Made by a program: the position numbers and the translations under genes. This document shows, piece after piece, positions 1 through 53,282 of a DNA stretch of 64,000 nucleotides; position 1 is the stretch's first letter; every line of letters starts with the position of its first letter. Origin of the DNA: Clostridia bacterium (GTDB lineage: Bacteria; Bacillota; Clostridia; Oscillospirales; CAG-272). The stretch lies in the NCBI GenBank assembly GCA_017461745.1, contig JAFTXE010000018.1:564-64563 (forward strand), given 5' to 3'. The notes beneath the pieces were generated by a model, which was not told where the DNA came from, did not search any database, and worked only from the letters and a program-made list of their open reading frames with translations.

Positions 1-126
1 TTATGTTATATTGCTCTATGCGAAAAAAATAATCCAACTCTTTGCGAACCATCGGGGCTTGAACCCTCGACAATAACAAAGAGATTGATTCACTATTTTT
101 AATAGTTTCTATCAACTAACGTGATA

Positions 127-3591: not shown

Positions 3592-5340
3592 ATGGCAACG
3601 AATGAAAAAATAACTATGGACGGTAACGTTAAGCTTATAACCAGACCTAAAACGGATAGATTGTATGAAAGAGTTCTTGACGCTTACGACCTTTGTAGAA
3701 TACTTGCAAAGCACGGCGACAAGACGGCGTTTACCTACTACGACAAGAGCAAAAAGCTCTATAGCATTTCCTACGTAAGATTCTACAACAGAATTGTAAG
3801 AACTGCGGCAGGACTTGTAAAGCACGGTCTCGCGGGCAAAAAGATAGCTCTTATCGGAGAGACGTCTACCTCTTGGCTGGCTTCTTATCTCGCAGTGCTC
3901 GTTACGGGCGGTATAGTTATCCCCATGGATAAGGAGCTTGATATTAAGGCTATCGTCGGACTCCTTGACAGCGTTGACGCTGACGCTATAATCTACGCCG
4001 ATCATTTCAATGGCAAGCTGGCTGGCGCTTTCGGAGAAAATTCCACTGTCAAGACCTTCCTTCCCATTGACCCCGATGAAGCAGAGCTTAAAAGGGAAGG
4101 CGTTATTCCATACAGAACGCTCAGAGCGGACGGAAAGGCTGACGTTGACGCGGGACTTTTCAAGCTTTCTCCCAAGCAGGATAGAGAAAAACTGTCCGAG
4201 ATGCTGTTTACCTCGGGTACTACGGGTACGAGCAAGTGCGTAATGCTCTGTCAGAAAAACGTATTCTCCGTCGTAACCTCAGCTTGTGAGTCGGTTGACT
4301 TTAATCCTAACGACGTTCTCGTTTCCGTTCTCCCCGTTCACCACACCTACGAGCTTGCGGTGCTTCTTGCGGCTATGGATTACGGCACGCATATCTGCAT
4401 AAACGACTCGCTGACTAAGGTTCTCAAGAATTTCCAAACCTTTAAGCCCACGGGACTCGTTCTCGTTCCTCTCTTCGTATACACCATGTACAAGAAGATT
4501 TGGGCTGAGGCAAAGAAAACGGGTAGAGACAAAAAGCTTAAGCTCGGTCTTTCCGCATCGAACGCGCTCAGAAAGGTTGGCATAGACAAGCGTGCCGAGC
4601 TGTTCAAGGACGTAACTAATGCCTTCGGCGGCAGACTTGAAAAGATAATCTGCGGCGGCGCGGCGCTCAATCCCAAGATGATAGAATTCTTCGGAGATAT
4701 CGGTATAAATATCTACGAGGGCTTCGGTATCACCGAATGCGCTCCTCTTACCTTCGTTTCACCTTACTACGCTCAGAAGGTCGGCTCTGTAGGTCCTGCC
4801 GTTCCTTGCTGTCAGGGACGCATTGACGGCGAGGCGTTTGGACCTCACGGATATATCGAGGGCGAAATTCAGATAAAGGGCGACAACGTAATGCTCGGCT
4901 ACTACAACAACCCCGCGGCTACTGCCGATGCCTTTACTGAGGACGGCTGGTTCAGAACGGGTGATATGGGATATATGGACAAGGACGGATATTTCTATAT
5001 TACGGGTAGACTTAAGTCGGTCATCGTTCTTGAAAACGGAAAGAATATCTTCCCTGAGGAGATAGAGGAATATCTCGCGGATATCGAGCTTATTGCTGAA
5101 AGCGTAGTCGTCGGCAGACAAAACGGTTCTACGGTAAATCTCGTGGCTATCGTTTATCCCGACCTTACAAAGTTCGCTCCCAATCAGAGCGAGAGCGAAA
5201 TACTTGAAGCTATCGAAAAGGCTATCAATCAGATGAATAAGCGTCTGCCTTCTCACAAGCAGATAAAAAAGGTCGAGCTTCGCGATACAGAGTTCGAAAA
5301 GACTACCTCTAAGAAGATAAAGAGACATCTTGTAAAGTAA
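3592..5340 (+). CDS. AMP-forming long-chain acyl-CoA synthetase
   Basis: 582 aa; AMP-binding motifs LFTSGTTGTSKCVML and GWFRTGDMGYMDKDGYFYITGRLK. Confidence 0.85.
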   Translation: MATNEKITMDGNVKLITRPKTDRLYERVLDAYDLCRILAKHGDKTAFTYYDKSKKLYSISYVRFYNRIVRTAAGLVKHGLAGKKIALIGETSTSWLASYLAVLVTGGIVIPMDKELDIKAIVGLLDSVDADAIIYADHFNGKLAGAFGENSTVKTFLPIDPDEAELKREGVIPYRTLRADGKADVDAGLFKLSPKQDREKLSEMLFTSGTTGTSKCVMLCQKNVFSVVTSACESVDFNPNDVLVSVLPVHHTYELAVLLAAMDYGTHICINDSLTKVLKNFQTFKPTGLVLVPLFVYTMYKKIWAEAKKTGRDKKLKLGLSASNALRKVGIDKRAELFKDVTNAFGGRLEKIICGGAALNPKMIEFFGDIGINIYEGFGITECAPLTFVSPYYAQKVGSVGPAVPCCQGRIDGEAFGPHGYIEGEIQIKGDNVMLGYYNNPAATADAFTEDGWFRTGDMGYMDKDGYFYITGRLKSVIVLENGKNIFPEEIEEYLADIELIAESVVVGRQNGSTVNLVAIVYPDLTKFAPNQSESEILEAIEKAINQMNKRLPSHKQIKKVELRDTEFEKTTSKKIKRHLVK

Positions 5341-5354
5341 TTTGTAATATATCA

Positions 5355-5383
5355 TTGACAAATTACGCGAAAAGATGTATAAT
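5355..5383 (+). promoter_or_regulatory. consensus promoter TTGACA-17-TATAAT
   Basis: -35 at 5355..5360, -10 at 5378..5383, upstream of the DegV gene. Confidence 0.55.
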
Positions 5384-5443
5384 AGTATTTGATACTACAT
5401 TTAAAGTTTTGATGTACCGCAAAGGTACGGAAAGGAATATTAC

Positions 5444-6304
5444 GTGCGTGATTATGTAATTCTTACAGACTCGGGAACAGACTTGAGTCCCCAGATGGCT
5501 AAAGAGCTTGATATTAAAATTCTTGACCTCTTGGTTATAATGGAGGGTGACCCCACTCCAAAGCCCAATTCGGAGGTTGATACCAAGGAGTTTTATAAAT
5601 TCCTTCGCACAAAGAAGGGCGCGACGACTTCGGCTATAAATCCCGAGACCTTTGCTGATGAAATGGATAAAATTCTATCCGAGGGAAAGGACGTTTTATA
5701 TCTCGGCTTCTCCTCGGGTCTGAGCAATACCTACAATGCTGGCAGAATTGCCGCTGAGGAAATGGCTCATAAATATCCCGATGCCAAGGTTTACGCTTGC
5801 GATACGCTTTGCGCGTCTCTCGGTCAGGGTATGCTCGTTTATCTTGCAGCTAAGAAGAGACTTGCGGGAGCTACTATCGACGAGGTTCGCGACTACGTTG
5901 AGGCTACGAAGCTTCACCTCTGTCATTGGTTCACCGTTGACGACCTTATGTTTCTGAAGCGCGGCGGTAGAGTAAGCGCTACCACGGCGGCTGTGGGTAC
6001 GATGCTCGGCATTAAGCCCGTTATGCACGTTGACAACGAGGGACACCTTATTAAGATGGGTACGGCAAGAGGTAGAAAGGCTTCCATTGACGCTATCTTT
6101 GAAAAGACCAAGGCTACTATCGTCGAAAAGGATACCATGTTTATCTGTCACGGCGATTGCATCGAGGACGCAAACTATCTTGCCGAGCGCGCTAAGAATG
6201 AGCTTGGTTTAAAGGAAGTCATCATTGACTACACGGGCGTTGTTATCGGCTCTCACTCGGGGCCCGGAACACTCGCTATATTCTACATTGGAACTGAGAG
6301 GTAA
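5444..6304 (+). CDS. DegV family fatty-acid-binding protein (FakB-like)
   Basis: 286 aa, GTG start; YVILTDSGTDL N-terminus and overall DegV pattern. Confidence 0.85.
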   Translation: MRDYVILTDSGTDLSPQMAKELDIKILDLLVIMEGDPTPKPNSEVDTKEFYKFLRTKKGATTSAINPETFADEMDKILSEGKDVLYLGFSSGLSNTYNAGRIAAEEMAHKYPDAKVYACDTLCASLGQGMLVYLAAKKRLAGATIDEVRDYVEATKLHLCHWFTVDDLMFLKRGGRVSATTAAVGTMLGIKPVMHVDNEGHLIKMGTARGRKASIDAIFEKTKATIVEKDTMFICHGDCIEDANYLAERAKNELGLKEVIIDYTGVVIGSHSGPGTLAIFYIGTER

Positions 6305-21340: not shown

Positions 21341-23029
21341 TTATTTTGTGTACTCTATTTGATATTCTACCAAGCTCATAGTGTTACTCTCTGCATTATA
21401 AATAATACTGATAAAATCATATATTCCGCTTTTGCTTGGCAAGCTATTAAATTCTTTTGTTGTTTTGTTGTATATTAGGTAGTAATCGCTTGATTCCATA
21501 TCATATAGATACGAGGTGATACCAACCATATCGTTAGGTATGTATGACATCCACTTTGTGTCACTTTCAAGATATTTCTCAAATTCTGCCACGCAAGCAT
21601 TATCAAAATAAATATCGCTGGTATAGTAAATATATCCGCGAGGTGATGATTGCGTTCCTTGAGTCCAATCGCGTGTATTAATTTGAGTATGCTCGGGAAT
21701 GTCAATATTCAATATTTGCTCTGCTTTCAAAATCGGTTCATCACTGTGCGAATATATATCGTCAAAAATAAAAGTAAATGAGCCGTAAATGCAAAGCAAT
21801 GCCGCCATAATAAATCCAACAATCACGTTTTTCTTATACTTGAATCCTTTTTTCTTCAAGTAAAAACCAAACATGATTGATGCTATAGGAATAGGAAGAA
21901 ACAAAAAGAATGCCCACATATTCTCATATTCCATTGCCCCCGGATTGATAACGGATAAAATAGCAGTGCCTATCAAACCACCCCATATAGAGCAAATAGA
22001 GAAAGCAAACAAAAGAATAGAAATTACACGCTGCCGACCTCTTGGTTTTGGAGAATATGTTTGAGAATTTATCCAATCACATGGATTTATGATAGGTTCA
22101 GTTATAGTACTATCGACTTTTTCAGACGATTCCTCATTAGTATAGTCCGAGTTTTCGTCAGAGGCAACTGCATCCTCCTGTATTGAATCATCTTTTTCTG
22201 CTATTTTTTTCAGATATTCATTAGAAAGACAAGCCAACATCAACTTGGGATATTGCTCTTTAACGAGACGAAATCGAAATTCTGCCTCTTTAATTTCCTC
22301 AAGTTCAAATGATATCAAACCTTTAAGATATTGAATATATGCTTCTGTCACATTGCGAGAAGTCCATGGCACAAGCTGCTCGCGAAGCTCAGAAATTTTT
22401 TCCGAATCGTGATCATAGAGCGCACAAAGCATATGAAGCACCGTTTGACACCTTTCGTTTATCAAGCGTTGCTTTTCTTTTTGACGAGTCAATTGTGAAA
22501 GCTCTTGGTCGTATTTAGATGCAGTATCTTTTAGCATATTACCGTCTTCAAGAAAAAATGCACATCTCGCTTTTTGAAACAGACCAACCATTGCATAGTT
22601 TCTATTTCGAGCACCAATCATTTTTTCTGCATATTTAATTGCTTCCAAATAATTTCCAAGATATAAATAGTCTTGCAAAAAAATAGAATTTGGAGGGTCG
22701 TGCTTGTATACGTTGAGATATAGAATAAGCTGTTTTTCAGGATCACATTCTTGATCCATTGACGATGTCAACGGATGCGTAATGAATAATACTGCAAAAA
22801 ACAATATCAAAAGACAAACAATAACCATCAATAAAAGAACCCCTATAGGCAAGCCTTTGGAAGTAACCGTCTCTGTTACTCCATTGACTGTATATGTTGA
22901 GGTTGAAGATCCGCCGAAAATAAAAATAGCAATTATCGCAATGACAGTAATAACTATCGCAAATTTTCTTCTTTTTTTAATCTTTTTTATTAAATCGGTA
23001 TACTTTGGTATTTTTTGATTTTGATTCAT
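21341..23029 (-). CDS. hypothetical membrane protein with TPR-like middle region
   Basis: 562 aa; N-terminal TM pair, helical repeat region, acidic linker, 4 TM, C-terminal beta-rich domain; AT-rich codon usage. Confidence 0.55.
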   Translation of the reverse strand: MNQNQKIPKYTDLIKKIKKRRKFAIVITVIAIIAIFIFGGSSTSTYTVNGVTETVTSKGLPIGVLLLMVIVCLLILFFAVLFITHPLTSSMDQECDPEKQLILYLNVYKHDPPNSIFLQDYLYLGNYLEAIKYAEKMIGARNRNYAMVGLFQKARCAFFLEDGNMLKDTASKYDQELSQLTRQKEKQRLINERCQTVLHMLCALYDHDSEKISELREQLVPWTSRNVTEAYIQYLKGLISFELEEIKEAEFRFRLVKEQYPKLMLACLSNEYLKKIAEKDDSIQEDAVASDENSDYTNEESSEKVDSTITEPIINPCDWINSQTYSPKPRGRQRVISILLFAFSICSIWGGLIGTAILSVINPGAMEYENMWAFFLFLPIPIASIMFGFYLKKKGFKYKKNVIVGFIMAALLCIYGSFTFIFDDIYSHSDEPILKAEQILNIDIPEHTQINTRDWTQGTQSSPRGYIYYTSDIYFDNACVAEFEKYLESDTKWMSYIPNDMVGITSYLYDMESSDYYLIYNKTTKEFNSLPSKSGIYDFISIIYNAESNTMSLVEYQIEYTK

Positions 23030-23050: not shown

Positions 23051-23082
23051 AAAAAGGTGTGCATAACCGAAGTATGCACACC
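23051..23082 (-). terminator. intrinsic terminator inside the 5' leader of the 21341..23029 gene
   Basis: Minus strand GGUGUGCAUA-CUUCGGU-UAUGCACACC followed by UUUUU, 21 nt before the RBS. Confidence 0.65.
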
Positions 23083-23270
23083 GAAAAACGCAAACTCCGA
23101 TTGCTGCTACACAAAACTTAACAAGCGTAGAGAAAACTCATACTTAGATGCCAAGTGGAATTTGCATTTTTTCCAAATTCATTATTAGCATACAAGTATA
23201 GGAATAAACCTCTCTATAAAAAAAATAGAGAGTCCTCTCGCATAAGCTTGTTGATTAAATTTTGTGTAGC
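23083..23270 (-). promoter_or_regulatory. structured 5' leader / candidate invertible segment (copy L1)
   Basis: Inverted repeats 23106..23126 and 23246..23270, hairpin block A 23154..23180, 17-mer block B 23084..23100; homologous blocks at 47891..47983. Confidence 0.55.
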
Positions 23271-23276
23271 AAGGAT

Positions 23277-23305
23277 ATTATATCATAAATTCCATGGTTT
23301 GTCAA
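23277..23305 (-). promoter_or_regulatory. consensus promoter TTGACA-17-(TGa)TATAAT on minus strand
   Basis: Reverse complement of 23277..23305 = TTGACAAACCATGGAATTTATGATATAAT. Confidence 0.6.
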
Positions 23306-29212: not shown

Positions 29213-29301
29213 GCCGGTGTGGCGGAACAGGCAGACGCCCGGGACTTAAAATCCCGTGATACGTAAGTATCGTACCGGTTCGACCCCGGTCACCGGCACC
29301 A
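29213..29301 (+). tRNA. tRNA-Leu (anticodon UAA)
   Basis: 89 nt with CCA; acceptor GCCGGTG/CACCGGC, anticodon stem CGGGA/TCCCG with loop CTTAAAA, long variable arm GATAC-GTAA-GTATC, T arm ACCGG-TTCGACC-CCGGT. Confidence 0.9.
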
Positions 29302-29321
29302 CACGGTAAAAAATTTCATAT

Positions 29322-29399
<78 letters not shown>

Positions 29400-47773: not shown

Positions 47774-47802
47774 TTGATTTTCGGTCATTATTGTGGTATA
47801 AT
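47774..47802 (+). promoter_or_regulatory. promoter TTGATT-17-TATAAT for the collagen-like lipoprotein gene
   Basis: -35 at 47774..47779, -10 at 47797..47802; about 270-nt leader follows. Confidence 0.5.
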
Positions 47803-47808
47803 ATAAGG

Positions 47809-47984
47809 GCCAAATCAATCGAATAAATGCGTTATCAGTGTATATTTCTCTTTAGGGGAACTATACTCTTTTTGGCGTGCTTACATAGTAGAATTTGATA
47901 AAAATGCAAATTCCGACTATGTGAGCATGTATACACTGTTTCGCATTAGATTGGTTTGGCGACTATTCGGAGTTTGCGTTTTTT
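47809..47984 (+). promoter_or_regulatory. structured 5' leader / candidate invertible segment (copy L2)
   Basis: Inverted repeats 47826..47844 and 47930..47947, hairpin block A 47891..47918, 17-mer block B 47967..47983 identical to 23084..23100 (rc). Confidence 0.55.
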
Positions 47985-48014
47985 GTGCGCTTGCTTCGGT
48001 AGGCGCACTTTTTT
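47985..48014 (+). terminator. intrinsic terminator inside the leader
   Basis: GTGCGC-TTGCTTCGGTAG-GCGCAC followed by TTTTTT, 67 nt before the ATG. Confidence 0.55.
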
Positions 48015-48081
48015 GTTTTTTGACAAAAAAAGCAAAAAATTACGACTTATATTATTGAGGGGAAAAAAGGAGGAATTTGCA

Positions 48082-50529
48082 ATGCTGAACTTCAAAAAGG
48101 TCATTTCACTATGTCTGTGTCTTGTGATGCTTGTGGGTGTTCTTGCGTCTTGTGACGAGGGCACGCAAGGGATACAGGGTGAGCAAGGTATTCAAGGAGA
48201 ACAAGGAATACATGGCGAGCAGGGTGTTCAAGGCGAACAGGGGGAAAAAGGAGACAAGGGCGACAAAGGTGACAAAGGTGATGACGGTGTAAGTCCGACT
48301 TTAGCAATCAGTGATGACGGCTATTGGGTAATCAATGGCACAAAGACTAATTTCAAAGCAACGGGTACGGACGGGCAGAACGGCACGGACGGTGTAACGC
48401 CATCAATCACAATCAATGCTGATGGTTATTGGGTTATCAATAATGTCGTATCTGAATATAAGGCGGTCGGCAAGGACGGTGTAGACGGAAGCACTCCAAC
48501 GGTCGAGATTAGTAACGATGGCTATTGGGTACTTAACGGAACAAAGACTGCTCATAAGGTCATCGGTCAGAATGGATTGGATGGCGAAGACGGAAAAGAT
48601 GGAGCAGACGGAAAAACGCCCGCTCTGCGCATCAATTCTGAAACAAATGAGTGGGAAGTCTCTTATGACGATGGAGAAAATTGGACTTCACTCGGTGTAA
48701 AAGCGACAGGAGCGAACGGCTCTGACGGCAAAGACGGTCAAAATGGTACAAACGGAAAAGATGGCAAAGACGGTGCTGATGGTATAACGCCGGCACTGCG
48801 CATCAATGCTGATAATGAATGGGAAGTCTCTTACGACAATGGAACTACTTGGGCGTCTCTTGGTGTAAAGGCTACGGGTGCTAATGGTAACGATGGTGCT
48901 GATGGCGAAGACGGTCAAGATGGTCAAGACGGCGCAAACGGCGTAGATGGCATATCTCCGAAAATACGCATCAATGCGGAAAATTATTGGGAGGTATCTT
49001 ACGATAATGGAACAACTTGGGCATCTCTCGGCGTGAAAGCGACTGGCGCAGATGGTCAAGATGGAACAAATGGTACGAACGGCACGAATGGTACAAACGG
49101 AAAAGATGGTGAGGACGGTGCTGACGGTATAACCCCGAAACTGCGCATCAATTCTGAAAATAATGAATGGGAAGTCTCTTACGATAACGGCGAGAATTGG
49201 ATTTCTCTCGGCGTGAAAGCGACGGGCGCTGACGGTCAAGATGGAGCGAATGGTTCTAATGGAACAAACGGAACGAATGGTACGAATGGAGTTAACGGAA
49301 AGACTCCTCGGTTAAGAATCAATTCTGAAAGCAACGAGTGGGAAGTTTCTTATGACGATGGAGAGCATTGGACTTCTCTCGGAGTAAAAGCGACAGGCGC
49401 TGACGGTCAAGATGGAGCGAATGGTTCTAACGGAATAAACGGAACGAATGGCGACGACGGCGCAACGATTGCATCTATCGTATTCAACGAAGAGGGCAAG
49501 TTGGTTATTACGATGACTGACGGCACAGAGTTCATCGTTGATATGCCTGAGAAAGAAGAGCATGTACACAGTTATAGCGAATTGATTGATTATAGTAATG
49601 ATGCAAGTCTATCTTGTACGGAGAGAATGTACTATCAGTTTTGTGCGAGTTGTAGTGAGATAAGGTGGTGCTTGGGTAAGCATAATTTTTCTGAAGGATA
49701 TTATAGCGATGGAACTCATCATTGGTTCGATTGCTATAACTGTGACGAAAAACTTGGCTTTGAAGAGCATACATATAATTTTTACGGTTTTTGCACATGC
49801 GAATCTGACATGGGGCCATCAGACAGTGTTATTTATGGAGTTTCTGAAGATGGCTCGCATGCAGTGGTTACAGGCTATACGGGTTCAGATGCTAAAGTAG
49901 TTATTGCTTCTCAATACGGAGATTTGCAAGTACTTGAAATTGCAGAGAGAGCGTTTGAGAATACTGATGTTGAGACGGTAATTATTTCTGGAAGCATCAT
50001 GTACATTGGTGAATATGCTTTCGCTGACTGTTCAAATCTCTCTAGAGTTTCAACGATGGAAGGTGTTGCGTTTATAGACAGATATGCTTTTGCTAATTGT
50101 ATCAGTCTCAAAACTATAGACATAGCTAATGTCGATGCAATCAATGCATGCGCTTTTTCGGGATGTAGTGCTTTGGATGGTGTTACACTTTCAGAGGATA
50201 TGGAATTTATAACAGGTGGTCTCTTTGAAAATTGCAGTAGTCTTACGAACATCACGATTCCGAGCAATGTGACACTTATTGGAAACGACGCTTTTAGTGG
50301 ATGCAGTAGTCTTAGATGTGTTGAACTTTCTAACAATCTTAAAAGCATTGGTGGAAGTGCTTTTAGTGGTTGTACAAGCTTGGGAAATATTACACTTCCA
50401 GATAGTATAGAAAGTATTGGAGAAAATGCATTTGAAAGTTGTTTGGGGTTAACAAGTATTGTACTTCCACAAAATATCACTGACATCTGCTATATTATCA
50501 TGAACATATCGTTGAATATGGCAAAGTAG
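48082..50529 (+). CDS. surface lipoprotein: collagen-like G-X-Y repeats + modular repeats + Cys-rich region + BspA-type leucine-rich repeats; C-terminus apparently truncated
   Basis: 815 aa from MLNFKK (AAGGAGG RBS; lipobox LASC); 43 G-X-Y triplets at 48160..48288; LRR units like VTLIGNDAFSGCSSL; ends abruptly after ITDI. Confidence 0.75.
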   Translation: MLNFKKVISLCLCLVMLVGVLASCDEGTQGIQGEQGIQGEQGIHGEQGVQGEQGEKGDKGDKGDKGDDGVSPTLAISDDGYWVINGTKTNFKATGTDGQNGTDGVTPSITINADGYWVINNVVSEYKAVGKDGVDGSTPTVEISNDGYWVLNGTKTAHKVIGQNGLDGEDGKDGADGKTPALRINSETNEWEVSYDDGENWTSLGVKATGANGSDGKDGQNGTNGKDGKDGADGITPALRINADNEWEVSYDNGTTWASLGVKATGANGNDGADGEDGQDGQDGANGVDGISPKIRINAENYWEVSYDNGTTWASLGVKATGADGQDGTNGTNGTNGTNGKDGEDGADGITPKLRINSENNEWEVSYDNGENWISLGVKATGADGQDGANGSNGTNGTNGTNGVNGKTPRLRINSESNEWEVSYDDGEHWTSLGVKATGADGQDGANGSNGINGTNGDDGATIASIVFNEEGKLVITMTDGTEFIVDMPEKEEHVHSYSELIDYSNDASLSCTERMYYQFCASCSEIRWCLGKHNFSEGYYSDGTHHWFDCYNCDEKLGFEEHTYNFYGFCTCESDMGPSDSVIYGVSEDGSHAVVTGYTGSDAKVVIASQYGDLQVLEIAERAFENTDVETVIISGSIMYIGEYAFADCSNLSRVSTMEGVAFIDRYAFANCISLKTIDIANVDAINACAFSGCSALDGVTLSEDMEFITGGLFENCSSLTNITIPSNVTLIGNDAFSGCSSLRCVELSNNLKSIGGSAFSGCTSLGNITLPDSIESIGENAFESCLGLTSIVLPQNITDICYIIMNISLNMAK
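48616..49465 (+). repeat. five tandem coding repeats of about 165-180 bp
   Basis: Units TP(A/K/R)LRIN..NEWEVSYD(D/N)G..W.SLGVKATGA(N/D)G + variable G-X-Y run. Confidence 0.75.
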
Positions 50530-50884: not shown

Positions 50885-51445
50885 TCAAACACCATATTCT
50901 CTGACCCACCTATAAAAAGTCGTAGATGTAATACCGAACGCTTTCTGTATGCTCACTGCCGTTCGCTCATTATCACGCCACTCTTTACAGAGCCTTACAA
51001 ATTTGCTCTTATCAATATCCATACGCTTTCTGCCCTTATAGACACCGTTTGCCTTGGCGATAGCAATACCCTCCGACTGACGCTGAAGAAGACCTTCTCT
51101 CTCCATCTGCGCAAGAGCCGCGAAAATTGTGAGCATGAACTCGCCTTGCGGAGTTGCTGTGTCGATAGACTCCTTCAGACTAACGAACTTCACACTCTTA
51201 TTCTGCAGCTCATCTGTGATAGCGAGCAAGTCACGAGTGTTACGAGCAATTCTGCTGAAGCTCTCACAGATGACTGTATCGCCCTCTCTGACGAACGCCA
51301 ACATCTTTTGCAGTTCCACTCTGTCTGCGTTCTTACCGCTCGCCTTATCCATAAAGATTCTGTCAGCACAATGTTCCTTTGCCATAGCGACCTGTCTTGC
51401 CTCGTTTTGCTCAAGCGTCGAGCATCTGATGTAGAATACCTTCAT
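50885..51445 (-). CDS. small serine recombinase (resolvase/invertase family)
   Basis: 186 aa from MKVFYIRCSTLEQ; catalytic Ser region, C-terminal HTH GITSTTFYRWV. Confidence 0.85.
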   Translation of the reverse strand: MKVFYIRCSTLEQNEARQVAMAKEHCADRIFMDKASGKNADRVELQKMLAFVREGDTVICESFSRIARNTRDLLAITDELQNKSVKFVSLKESIDTATPQGEFMLTIFAALAQMEREGLLQRQSEGIAIAKANGVYKGRKRMDIDKSKFVRLCKEWRDNERTAVSIQKAFGITSTTFYRWVREYGV

Positions 51446-51652
51446 TTTCAAATTCCTTTCTGAAGTGTTATTTTAGAGTGGCTGTTTTTCATGTTGCGTA
51501 ACTTAATTCGATATAGAACCCTAATGTTGCAATTTGCGAGTATCACTTTGAAGTATAGTCTAAAGTGATATAAAATCGTTTGCGAAAAATTGTATATATA
51601 AATAGAGAAATATAGCAATCTCAAATCATATAACCTCAAAGGAGAAGAAACA

Positions 51653-52321: not shown

Positions 52322-53260
52322 TTACCTCATCTTAATACTCAACCTTCCCGAAAACTTATCCAAGAGATTGAGTTCATTGACTTGCTTTGCCACATCACTG
52401 ACGAGAAGGTTGAGATAATTCTGCGTAATATCGAGACTGCTATGACCAAGCATTTTAGAGAGGGAAACCACATTGCCACCGCTTAACACCCATTGTTTAG
52501 CGAAAGTGTGTCTGTATCTGTGTATGCCCGTCCTCTCAACACCGCGACGCTTATTATACTCGTACAGCATATGATAACAGGTGCTCTTGACGAGTTGCTG
52601 ACCGTACGCATTGCAGAACAGATAGTCGTCCGTGTTCTTATGCTTACGATATTTCAAAAACTCTTTCAGTACATTTGCCATTGTTTGATTGACGGGCACG
52701 ATGAGCGGTTTTCTATTCTTTGTAACATTGACATAGACCACATTGTTATCGAAATCCACATCCTTGACCTTGATGTTCATAAGACTGCGCTGCCTAACAC
52801 CCGTACTGAAGAGAAAAGTCGTAATCACCCACGCTTGATACTCCGTAAAATTGCACTGCTTGATGTTGGGCTTTTTCAACAGTGCTCTTAATTCGTCCTC
52901 TGTGTAAGTCTCGATGCCGCTTTTATCTACTTTAATTGCTTGCATCTTGAACCGCTCAAGATAGCCCTCGTCCATGAGAAAGTGAAGCGTTGTTATCAAG
53001 TCGCGCAAGTAAGAATTGATACTGACATCATTGTGCAGTATCTTTTTCAGATGCAGAACATAACTCTTGTAAGCGTCCGCATCCATATATTCAATCGGCA
53101 TATCGGGGTCAAAGAATTTATAGAACTGCGTGTAACTCTGTTTGTAGTGATTGATAGTACCTTCTCTCAAATTGCGCTGTCTGCAATTGTCGAGATATTT
53201 GTTACAGCCGTCCTCAAAAGTAAACGCATCACTCGCATCCATTTTCAATCTTTTCATCAT
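52322..53260 (-). CDS. tyrosine-type site-specific integrase
   Basis: About 312 aa from an ATG after GAGGTG (the ORF opens at TTG 53272); TGVRQRSL (Arg), HRYRHTF (H-x-x-R), LGHSSLDITQNYL (His...Tyr). Confidence 0.85.
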   Translation of the reverse strand: MMKRLKMDASDAFTFEDGCNKYLDNCRQRNLREGTINHYKQSYTQFYKFFDPDMPIEYMDADAYKSYVLHLKKILHNDVSINSYLRDLITTLHFLMDEGYLERFKMQAIKVDKSGIETYTEDELRALLKKPNIKQCNFTEYQAWVITTFLFSTGVRQRSLMNIKVKDVDFDNNVVYVNVTKNRKPLIVPVNQTMANVLKEFLKYRKHKNTDDYLFCNAYGQQLVKSTCYHMLYEYNKRRGVERTGIHRYRHTFAKQWVLSGGNVVSLSKMLGHSSLDITQNYLNLLVSDVAKQVNELNLLDKFSGRLSIKMR

Positions 53261-53282
53261 TTCACCTCGCAAAAATCAGTAT

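Follow-up and report, generated by a model that had tools for sequence, protein, structure and literature searches.

A family of leader RNAs, probably transcription attenuators, upstream of accessory genes in gut Clostridia

The pyr operon attenuators of Bacillus subtilis (PyrR) are built as a chain of anti-antiterminator, antiterminator and terminator; trp-type attenuation uses the helices 1:2, 2:3 and 3:4; and the leader hairpins of lambda N/boxB and of LoaP are examples of hairpin-dependent antitermination. The subject of this paper is a leader that resembles each of these in part. It occurs twice in a stretch of 64,000 nucleotides from a Clostridia bacterium (GenBank assembly GCA_017461745.1, contig JAFTXE010000018.1, positions 564 to 64,563 of the forward strand), which as a whole is called the window here: once on the plus strand as L2, in front of a collagen-repeat lipoprotein gene, and once on the minus strand as L1, in front of a membrane protein gene. 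L1 and L2 probably belong to a widespread family of cis-acting leader RNAs that act as transcription attenuators and are new to Rfam 15 and to the searchable literature. Transcription attenuation is a known kind of control, but the family is outside the PyrR, trp, cyclic di-GMP (c-di-GMP) and cwpV systems. In brief, a folded domain closed by a stem, P1, bears at its tip a small hairpin, block A, whose 3' strand (A3') can pair with its own 5' strand (A5') or with a downstream block B, which is followed by an intrinsic terminator.

Like the pyr attenuators, the family has a chain of exclusive leader hairpins in which an element further upstream ties up the antiterminator's 5' strand and so lets the terminator form, and a conserved hairpin that is the likely protein-binding element. 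Unlike them, it has an extra "lock" hairpin (A5':A3'), an anti-antiterminator that is a 17-bp long-range pairing across a scaffold of about 150 nucleotides, and control over diverse accessory genes rather than one pathway; the PyrR consensus ARUCCAGAGAGGYU, allowing up to three mismatches, is absent from in or near either leader, and the window holds 8 matches to it against 13.8 expected. As in trp-type attenuation, successive strands each have two alternative partners, but the family has no translated leader peptide and has four helices rather than three. The c-di-GMP-I and c-di-GMP-II riboswitches resemble the family in having a P1-closed domain and then an intrinsic terminator in the 5' untranslated region, in occurring as several copies per genome, and in standing 5' of genes for adhesin-like or membrane proteins, also in phages; they differ in that the family leaders have no Rfam match even at E <= 10, are conserved in the switching strands and not in a junction or pocket, and precede a gene set that implies no ligand. 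Lambda N/boxB and LoaP (for the latter, PMC12691694) have, as here, a small, sequence-invariant leader hairpin before a terminator, suited to a dedicated protein; in contrast, no NusG paralogue or regulator gene is adjacent to L1 or L2, and the family has an explicit RNA antiterminator helix, so that modification of RNA polymerase is unneeded. Finally, in cwpV of Clostridioides difficile (PMC2784873) a repeat-flanked segment likewise lies between promoter and open reading frame (ORF), termination likewise occurs in the leader and the target is likewise a surface protein, and one member of the family (L169) is inverted at its repeat arms. However, in the family the arms pair as a covarying RNA helix that includes G.U pairs and enclose a conserved RNA fold, the flanked segment does not contain the terminator, and the assemblies show neither orientation heterogeneity within a locus nor a general association with recombinases.

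The L2 leader and its predicted competing helices

A preliminary description of this DNA had named a promoter, inverted-repeat arms, blocks A and B, a terminator and the start codon of the downstream gene in L2, and all were found at or close to where they had been placed, save that block A, said to end at 47918, ends 5 nucleotides earlier, at 47913. The parts of L2 are as follows.

47774-48014, plus strand: L2 leader overall, promoter to terminator
47774..47802, plus strand: promoter TTGATT-17-TATAAT with a TG extension (promoter scan)
47809..47820, plus strand: 5' strand of P1, GCCAAATCAATC, partner 47949-47960 (minimum free energy, MFE, fold)
47821..47825, plus strand: internal loop J1/2, GAATA; its AAUA motif is 70-90% conserved (family alignment)
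47826..47843, plus strand: 5' strands of P2, partner 47931-47947 (MFE fold); the "inverted repeat" of the preliminary description
47826-47844 and 47930-47947, plus strand: the inverted-repeat arms as seen in the sequence
47846..47874, plus strand: hairpin P3 (47846-47860) and U-rich J3/4, CTATACTCTTTTTG (MFE fold, family alignment)
47875..47930, plus strand: P4 arm, lower stem 47875-47889 / 47916-47930, with the block A hairpin at its tip (MFE fold)
47891..47913, plus strand: block A hairpin GAATTTG-ATAAAAATG-CAAATTC, the "lock" (helix 10, almost invariant)
47900..47916, plus strand: A3' segment AAAAATGCAAATTCCGA, complementary to block B, the anti-antiterminator strand (reverse complement compared with B)
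47959..47972, plus strand: antiterminator 5' strand GCGACTATTCGGAG, comprising the P1 end, linker and 5' half of B (family pairing)
47967..47983, plus strand: block B, TCGGAGTTTGCGTTTTT (17-mer search)
47985..48014, plus strand: terminator GTGCGCTTGC-TTCG-GTAGGCGCAC and T6, with a 10-bp stem (terminator scan)
47994-48006, plus strand: antiterminator 3' strand, inside the terminator (family pairing)
48082..50529, plus strand: L2-controlled gene (ATG 48082) for an 815-aa lipoprotein with collagen repeats, DUF4988 and BspA-type leucine-rich repeats (LRR) (Pfam scan)

The leader most likely decides read-through by competing base-pairings, as each conserved switching strand has, by sequence complementarity, two possible partners. 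The first helix is the A hairpin itself, A3' (CAAAUUC) with A5' (GAAUUUG), predicted at -4.2 kcal/mol. In the second, the loop and A3' (AAAAAUGCAAAUUCCGA) pair with B at -21.8 kcal/mol over the 17 positions that had been counted earlier, two of which are G.U pairs; this helix, the length of which can be given as 15-17 bp, crosses P1 and would thus form a pseudoknot. The two G.U pairs are conserved, as would be expected if each strand had to satisfy two partners. The third helix is the antiterminator, in which GCGAC-UAU-CGGAG (P1 end, linker and first five bases of B) pairs with C-UUCG-GUAG-n-CGC (terminator loop and 3' strand); it comprises 12 pairs, is 95.1% paired over 92 distinct tails, and covaries at two positions, one showing U-A, A-U and U.G exchange (35, 26 and 11 sequences) and the other a change from A-U to G-C (3 sequences). 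The fourth helix is the terminator, which is 97.6% paired and covaries at 7 of its 10 pairs.

In the isolated tail, with B free, the antiterminator is the MFE structure in 84 of 92 copies. Both terminators of the window contain CTTCGGT, because the terminator loop pairs with the linker and the 5' half of B; a TTCG loop is present in 88 of 105 leader terminators, compared with 6 of 331 other terminator-like hairpins in the same loci. The lengths of the A-run in the block A loop and of the U-run in B also covary, a loop with four A's never being matched with a U-run of six (24:0) and one with five A's giving 32:34 (Fisher test 1e-6, without correction for phylogeny). Overall, the A3':B pairing is supported by comparison of the sequences, and the leader combines an intrinsic terminator with a predicted, mutually exclusive antiterminator pairing, which is the arrangement of an attenuator.

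The L2 promoter is the sole promoter-like site found by the promoter scan between 47600 and 48150. Two features are seen beyond the L2 terminator. From 48009 to 48039 the U-tract continues into a U-rich/A-rich palindrome (TTTTTTGTTTTTTGACAAAAAAAGCAAAAAA), which is specific to L2 and could be a second hairpin or a bidirectional terminator. The ribosome-binding site (RBS) region of the L2 gene at 48072-48081 (GGAGGAATTTGCAATG) holds GGAATTTGCA, an exact 10-nucleotide complement of A3' (TGCAAATTCC), so that A3' could, on complementarity, mask that RBS too; such a B-like sequence is no general feature of the family, being found at the RBS in 2 of 117 copies.

The second copy, the fold and the wider family

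The second copy in the window, L1, has the following parts.

23305-23051, minus strand: L1 leader overall
23277..23305, minus strand: promoter TTGACA-17-TATAAT, matching 12 of 12 consensus positions (promoter scan)
23084..23268, minus strand: folded domain through block B (full-length match of the covariance model made from L2 only)
23180-23157, minus strand: block A (pattern search)
23100-23084, minus strand: block B (17-mer search)
23051..23082, minus strand: terminator GGTGTGCATA-CTTCGGT-TATGCACACC and T5, hairpin 23082-23056 (terminator scan)
21341..23029, minus strand: L1-controlled gene (ATG 23029) for a 562-aa membrane protein with weak Acyl_transf_3 similarity (Pfam scan)

The B 17-mer is identical in both copies, as had been reported, and occurs exactly twice in the 64 kb (0.29 occurrences expected, in a search allowing 2 mismatches); a third match, with 2 mismatches that become G.U pairs in RNA, is the reverse complement of block A, which is a direct expression of the complementarity between A and B. 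The 24-nucleotide A pattern also occurs twice in the 64 kb, against 0.00 expected. Block A was said to differ between the copies by 2 substitutions and 1 indel: the substitutions are there (GATAAAAA in the one, GGAAAAAA in the other), the indel is not. The spacing from A to B, put at about 50 nucleotides, is 52 and 56 nucleotides. A search with a covariance model had been proposed, and was run with a model made from L2 only, using its MFE structure of 53 pairs. This model matched L2 and L1 only, L1 being recovered at full length with 53.1 bits and E 8e-11, and with the filters off it matched nothing else in the window; applied to the fetched loci, it gave 104 matches, i.e., about 100 further copies. 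The two loci are thus one cassette and not a chance resemblance, as shown by the covariance-model match and by blocks that occur far above expectation. The claim that the flanking repeats of the two copies are unrelated in sequence and yet preserve their pairing is also borne out: P1 is usually GCCAAAC.../...GTTTGGC, L1 has GCTACACAAA/TTTGTGTAGC instead, and the P1 arms of L1 and L2 are unrelated sequences within one genome.

The copies have a common plan. A -10 box is followed, after about 8 nucleotides, by a long P1, the AAUA internal loop, a variable P2, and a junction with P3 and the U-rich J3/4; then come a long P4 tipped by the block A hairpin and, after P1 has closed, the linker GAC(U/A)A, block B and the terminator. 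The folded domain is about 130-195 nucleotides long, and in the P3-J3/4 region a G-rich centre can alternatively pair with downstream pyrimidines (family listing). The promoter is of the sigma-A type, and one of the form TTGnnn-16..18-TAnnnT is present at the same relative position in 104 of 117 family copies. The most strongly conserved parts are block A, the P1 base, the linker, block B and the loop of the terminator; in the junctions, conservation is confined to AAUA and the U-run.

When whole leaders were aligned with MAFFT and analysed with RNAalifold, only P1 and the A hairpin were returned, as the variable helices were misaligned, and the single-sequence model was used instead. In the alignment of 104 copies to that model, standard pairs fill 91.8% of paired cells compared with 65.2% in shuffled controls, double changes occur in 47 of the 53 pairs, and the covariation score is 0.61 against 0.17 for shuffled and at most 0.06 for slid-partner controls; these numbers lean toward structure, since the alignment was fitted to the model, but the margin is large. 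P1 is 99.2% paired, with double changes at all 11 pairs; P2 (helices 3-4) is 83-89% paired, with every pair covarying; and P4 (helices 6-9) is 82-97% paired, with all pairs covarying. Among the paired cells there are 486 G.U but 72 A.C, and the sense strand of L2 folds at -81.2 kcal/mol (z = -8.2) compared with -53.9 for the antisense strand. The flanking inverted repeats are therefore the P1 and P2 helices of a strand-specific RNA, and not recombinase sites.

Beyond the window, the A...B pattern TGCAAATTCC-N35-65-CGGAGTTTGCG has at least 120 loci in a GTDB collection of one genome per species. The matches listed, 120 or more, are all in metagenome-assembled genomes or isolates of Clostridia, save a single false positive, and come from human, ruminant, rabbit and other guts; among them are Oscillospiraceae, Acutalibacteraceae, Christensenellaceae, Lachnospiraceae, Borkfalkiaceae, Ruminococcus, Subdoligranulum and Faecousia. 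Viral contigs contributed, through GCAAATTCC-N35-65-CGGAGTTTGC, one further true copy, 5' of a zinc-ribbon protein gene, and the GenBank phage record MT835503 has a full leader copy before a methylase-like ORF. Given the covariance-model match, the covariation and more than 120 further copies upstream of genes, an RNA mechanism with regulated termination, which the preliminary description had offered as one option, is by far the best reading.

Looser scans returned mainly unrelated sequence. The A 14-mer alone gave nearly all chance matches in viral contigs. A metagenome scan for variants of B (GTTTGGCGACTATCGGAGV) gave 36 loci, of which 35 were false and one was a true copy, with an uncompensated change; among the false ones, four were unrelated chance matches, and the other 31 contigs shared four recurring sequence types, of which three were versions of one coding sequence. 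One false positive of the pattern searches, GTTTGGCGACTATCGGAGA (L130-L165), lies inside a coding sequence, found repeatedly on many contigs, that was taken, unchecked, as a transposase; another, ATCGGAGTTTGCGTTTT (L170-L179), from the viral scan with the B 17-mer, encodes a SEFAF motif in an apparent phage terminase (labelled by eye).

At gathering thresholds, Rfam 15 finds in the whole window only 2 transfer RNAs (two adjacent genes at 29213-29396), and between 47700 and 48120, at E <= 10, only chance matches of microRNA type with at most 19 bits. On fifteen loci bearing copies Rfam 15 finds nothing on the leaders; one of these searches located a Gut-1 RNA (RF01706, 52.4 bits) at 1373-1456 on the plus strand of L065, about 0.2 kb past the end of the leader-controlled gene and on the opposite strand. 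The conserved leader sequences have no relevant occurrence in the searchable literature, and are absent from the 200 of 408 supplement files of a human-microbiome survey of structured RNAs that were covered.

Since the pattern used on the genomes held the A and B cores constant, copies that had been reached by other routes were examined for natural changes in these blocks. The upstream copy of a tandem pair (L111b) has A3' CAGAUUCC and B GGAGUCUGCG, a change from A-U to G-C that is compensatory (CAGATTCC with GGAGTCTGCG), and its A5' still pairs through U.G. The loci L314-316, found via a homologous downstream protein, have A3' CAAAUCUC and B CGGGGUUUGCG, so that U-A has become C-G both in the A hairpin and in A3':B; in L314 A3' has changed from U to C, A5' from A to G (AGAUUUG) and B from A to G, and the terminator loop is CUUUGG. 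This is the three-way covariation that mutually exclusive pairing predicts. A divergent relative with the same architecture, L094b, has a loop/3' strand AAAAAGGUGCUCUCC and a B GGGGAAGGCACUUUUUU that are unrelated in sequence to those of the family but still complementary to each other; the energy of this duplex was reached by 4 of 500 shuffled tails (0.8%), the terminator loop, UCCG, fits its own B5', and P3 is missing. In MT835503, and in L308, which comes from an orthologous locus, single changes in A3' facing a canonical B create G.U pairs. The compensatory variants L111b, L314 and L094b support, at the level of sequence, the chain of four helices.

The tandem locus L111 has two complete cassettes on its minus strand, at 556-383 and 295-127, each with its own promoter; the private A/B pair of the upstream one would prevent cross-pairing of the two switches. 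Divergent leaders with the layout of P1, AAUA loop, tip hairpin, CGGRG linker and hairpin/terminator, but with different A and B sequences, are seen at L094 (~6520-6320, minus strand) and L124 (~2628-2445, minus strand), where a cassette of the family precedes this different leader. They hint at a broader superfamily; nhmmer with L094b and L124b found no further members among the fetched loci.

Controlled genes and a proposed mechanism

In 113 of 124 copies the leader is followed by an ORF in the same orientation with a Shine-Dalgarno sequence, and most of these ORFs start 12-35 nucleotides after the U-tract, which leaves no room for another promoter, so that the gene depends on read-through. 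The downstream products are extremely diverse. The 111 distinct ones include BspA-LRR proteins (11), zinc-ribbon proteins, many lipoproteins, small membrane proteins and Ltp-type lipoproteins, as well as GT2 glycosyltransferases, SPFH proteins, trypsin-like proteases, YpsA/SLOG proteins, AbrB/MazE-type proteins and an EcoRI-type methylase; one resembles, by eye, a sigma-70-family factor. They are accessory and surface genes and mobile-element cargo, and form no pathway.

The mechanism proposed is that expression of the gene would require read-through past the leader terminator, set by the four mutually exclusive helices. If B were free as the terminator loop emerged, CGGAG would nucleate on CUUCG, the helix would spread into the 3' strand, the terminator would be blocked and the gene would be on. 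If instead A3' captured B, the terminator would form and the gene would be off. The A-rich loop could provide the toehold for the U-run of B, after which A5' would be displaced. Predicted thermodynamics favour capture together with termination, and this state would be the default. Kinetically, the A hairpin would have to be invaded between the synthesis of B and that of the terminator loop, and the U-run at the end of B could serve as a pause site. The weak, sequence-invariant A hairpin would then be the control point, and a trans-acting factor that held it closed would turn the gene on; an RNA-binding protein that reads the A hairpin would be the most likely candidate, ahead of another RNA or of a ligand that binds at the junction. 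Invariance would spread from the recognised hairpin to B and then to the terminator loop, which matches the pattern of conservation. The near-invariance of A and B implies that something beyond pairing constrains both blocks, and a shared trans-acting factor is, on these grounds, plausible.

Several points weigh against this account. The pattern of the genome scan fixed 10 nucleotides of A3' and 11 of B, and the copies were selected accordingly. A and B are almost invariant across families, so that the evidence for their pairing is mostly one conserved complementarity and three variant lineages. Two copies have single changes that are uncompensated mismatches: in L143 (metagenome scan) a U of B has become C facing A, and in L298 (orthologous locus) a U of A3' has become C facing A. 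The direction of the switch and its input, a trans factor, are inferred from sequence. No regulator gene was found adjoining L1 or L2, the neighbours being an ABC transporter, a DUF1854 protein, an 86-aa ORF with no Pfam match, a Cys/Met pyridoxal-phosphate enzyme, a resolvase and an integrase; nor is a gene for a NusG paralogue (LoaP/UpxY/RfaH) found among these neighbours. The 17-bp A3':B pseudoknot, with its 5-nucleotide linker, may clash sterically with the fully folded domain, and the lengths of P4 and of P1+P2, compared with respect to fold-back geometry, give r = -0.45 from noisy MFE parses.

Other readings and the meaning of the family

In one rival reading the cassette would be a programmed, invertible DNA switch like that of cwpV, with low-frequency flipping of the P1-bounded domain by a recombinase, perhaps alongside the RNA fold. 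In the forward state A would capture B and transcription would terminate; in the flipped state A would read as a mimic of B, B would be free and the gene would be on. The architecture is cwpV-like: a promoter, a repeat-flanked segment (about 125-150 bp here), an OFF state based on termination, and surface proteins of Clostridia. The case for inversion comes from L169, which was found by the B-anchored scan of viral contigs, independently of the orientation of A. Here the entire P1-bounded domain is inverted, exactly at the arms, with no change in the promoter, linker, B, terminator or gene; the sequence at block A is GGAATTTGCATTTTTAACAAATTC, and the motif of P3/J3-4 is found as its reverse complement. 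As transcribed, the domain folds at -42.3 kcal/mol, compared with -55.4 when flipped back, so the inversion is recent. B is without a partner (-8.6 compared with -18.5 kcal/mol), and the predicted MFE structure of the whole leader holds the antiterminator, so that L169, as modelled, is consistent with the attenuator as a natural "locked" variant. The element (3650-5542, minus strand) has two large serine recombinases immediately upstream of the inverted leader and carries genes for a 95-98-aa membrane protein and a 234-aa lipoprotein. At L2, too, the controlled gene is followed by recombination genes:

50885-51451, minus strand: resolvase-type serine recombinase, 2.9 kb downstream of L2 as first described (Pfam scan)
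52322-53272, minus strand: tyrosine integrase, after the resolvase (Pfam scan)

This small island 3' of the L2 gene (50885-53272) has the same layout in two other metagenome assemblies.

Orientation, however, appears fixed at each locus. Other assemblies were retrieved via the downstream proteins: six more of the L169 element (L326, L327, L329, L330, L331 and L334) have the identical inverted leader, making seven; chromosomal orthologues of the L169 locus, in nine plus six assemblies, are all forward; L2 is forward and identical in two further assemblies, and L1 is forward in one further assembly. For L2, where a check for orientation heterogeneity had been suggested, this makes three identical assemblies in a single orientation. 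Both orientations were seen at none of 5 loci with 2-9 assemblies each, although consensus assemblies would hide a minority state, and the uniform state at each locus implies that orientation follows lineage. A count of 0 inverted among 125 copies was discarded, because the genome-scan pattern detects forward copies only. Nearness to a serine recombinase, remarked on at L2, does not extend to the family: among the matches listed, 2 of 120 loci have a resolvase homologue in the 8 kb covered, and one is also present near L2 and near L169, although a recombinase could be encoded elsewhere in the genome. The P1 arms of L1 and L2 are unrelated although the genome is the same; G.U pairs occur in the P1 of about 15% of copies, the arms of which are thus imperfect as DNA repeats; and nested covarying helices with a strong excess of G.U reflect selection on the forward RNA, which a simple inverton would not need. 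Rare, spontaneous repeat-mediated inversion, fixed because it locked mobile-element cargo on, accounts equally well for L169. In cwpV itself a 195-bp segment is flanked by inverted repeats, and 96% of the DNA is in one orientation (PMC2784873), a bias at which consensus assemblies would hide switching. Low-frequency inversion is therefore kept as a live rival and not as the main explanation, and a programmed switch is unlikely. A combination of the two, in which the accessory surface proteome is switched at two levels, by a trans factor that reads the A hairpin and by low-frequency, cwpV-like inversion at the P1 arms in many loci, is likewise unlikely.

A second reading, doubtful to a similar degree, is that the domain is a classical riboswitch for a small molecule, ion or second messenger, in which ligand-dependent folding of a three-way-junction aptamer would determine whether block A is accessible. 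A large, covarying domain that is closed by P1 and joined to a terminator platform would suit this, as would tandem cassettes (L111, L124) and the many copies 5' of surface and membrane protein genes, which recall the c-di-GMP riboswitches of Clostridia. However, nearly every conserved nucleotide belongs to a switching strand (A, B, the linker or the P1 base), and the junctions have only AAUA and the U-run; the relative L094b has no P3; LRR lipoproteins, zinc-ribbon proteins, methylases, AbrB-type proteins and a sigma factor have no metabolic theme; and the leader is present in phages as well.

It is very unlikely that the cassette is an independent gene for a small RNA of about 200 nucleotides, its A loop or B acting in trans on other copies or on messenger RNAs and its upstream position being incidental. 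It does have a strong promoter and a strong terminator of its own, as have the complete cassettes in the L111 tandem; the near-invariance of A and B across loci would suit partners shared in trans, and the ribosome-binding region of the L2 gene has the exact 10-nucleotide complement of A3'. Against this, the start codon mostly lies 12-35 nucleotides past the U-tract in the same orientation, which excludes a further promoter and makes the gene dependent on read-through; the complementarity and covariation of the antiterminator would be purposeless in an RNA acting purely in trans; and the RBS complement is present in 2 of 117 copies only. Leader-peptide attenuation, in which translation of a short peptide (MQIP...) would begin at an AUG in the loop of block A and the ribosome would pick the hairpin, was rejected as exceedingly improbable, since, although AUG CAA AUU CCN is conserved with a varying fourth-codon wobble (A 73, G 23, T 19, C 1), the Shine-Dalgarno-like sequence that it needs upstream is found in 3 of 116 copies, the leader ORF ranges from 4 to more than 99 codons with no conservation past MQIP, and the wobble position is the first nucleotide outside the core A3':B pairing.

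For the attenuator, the natural inverted copy is a ready-made "locked" control, and makes the idea of an RNA attenuator that doubles as a DNA phase switch directly testable. If the two-level switch were true, inversion would turn A from an anti-B into a mimic of B and lock the gene on, and L169 would be a captured, fixed state. If the attenuator model is true, it would offer a compact four-helix terminator switch that is usable for engineering. A single RNA device would then govern a large and diverse set of accessory genes in the dominant Clostridia of human and animal guts and in some of their phages, including those for lipoproteins, BspA-type LRR proteins, zinc-ribbon membrane proteins, Ltp-like proteins, methylases and small regulators. 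The device would mark these genes as conditionally expressed, and would point to a global signal or to an RNA-binding regulator.

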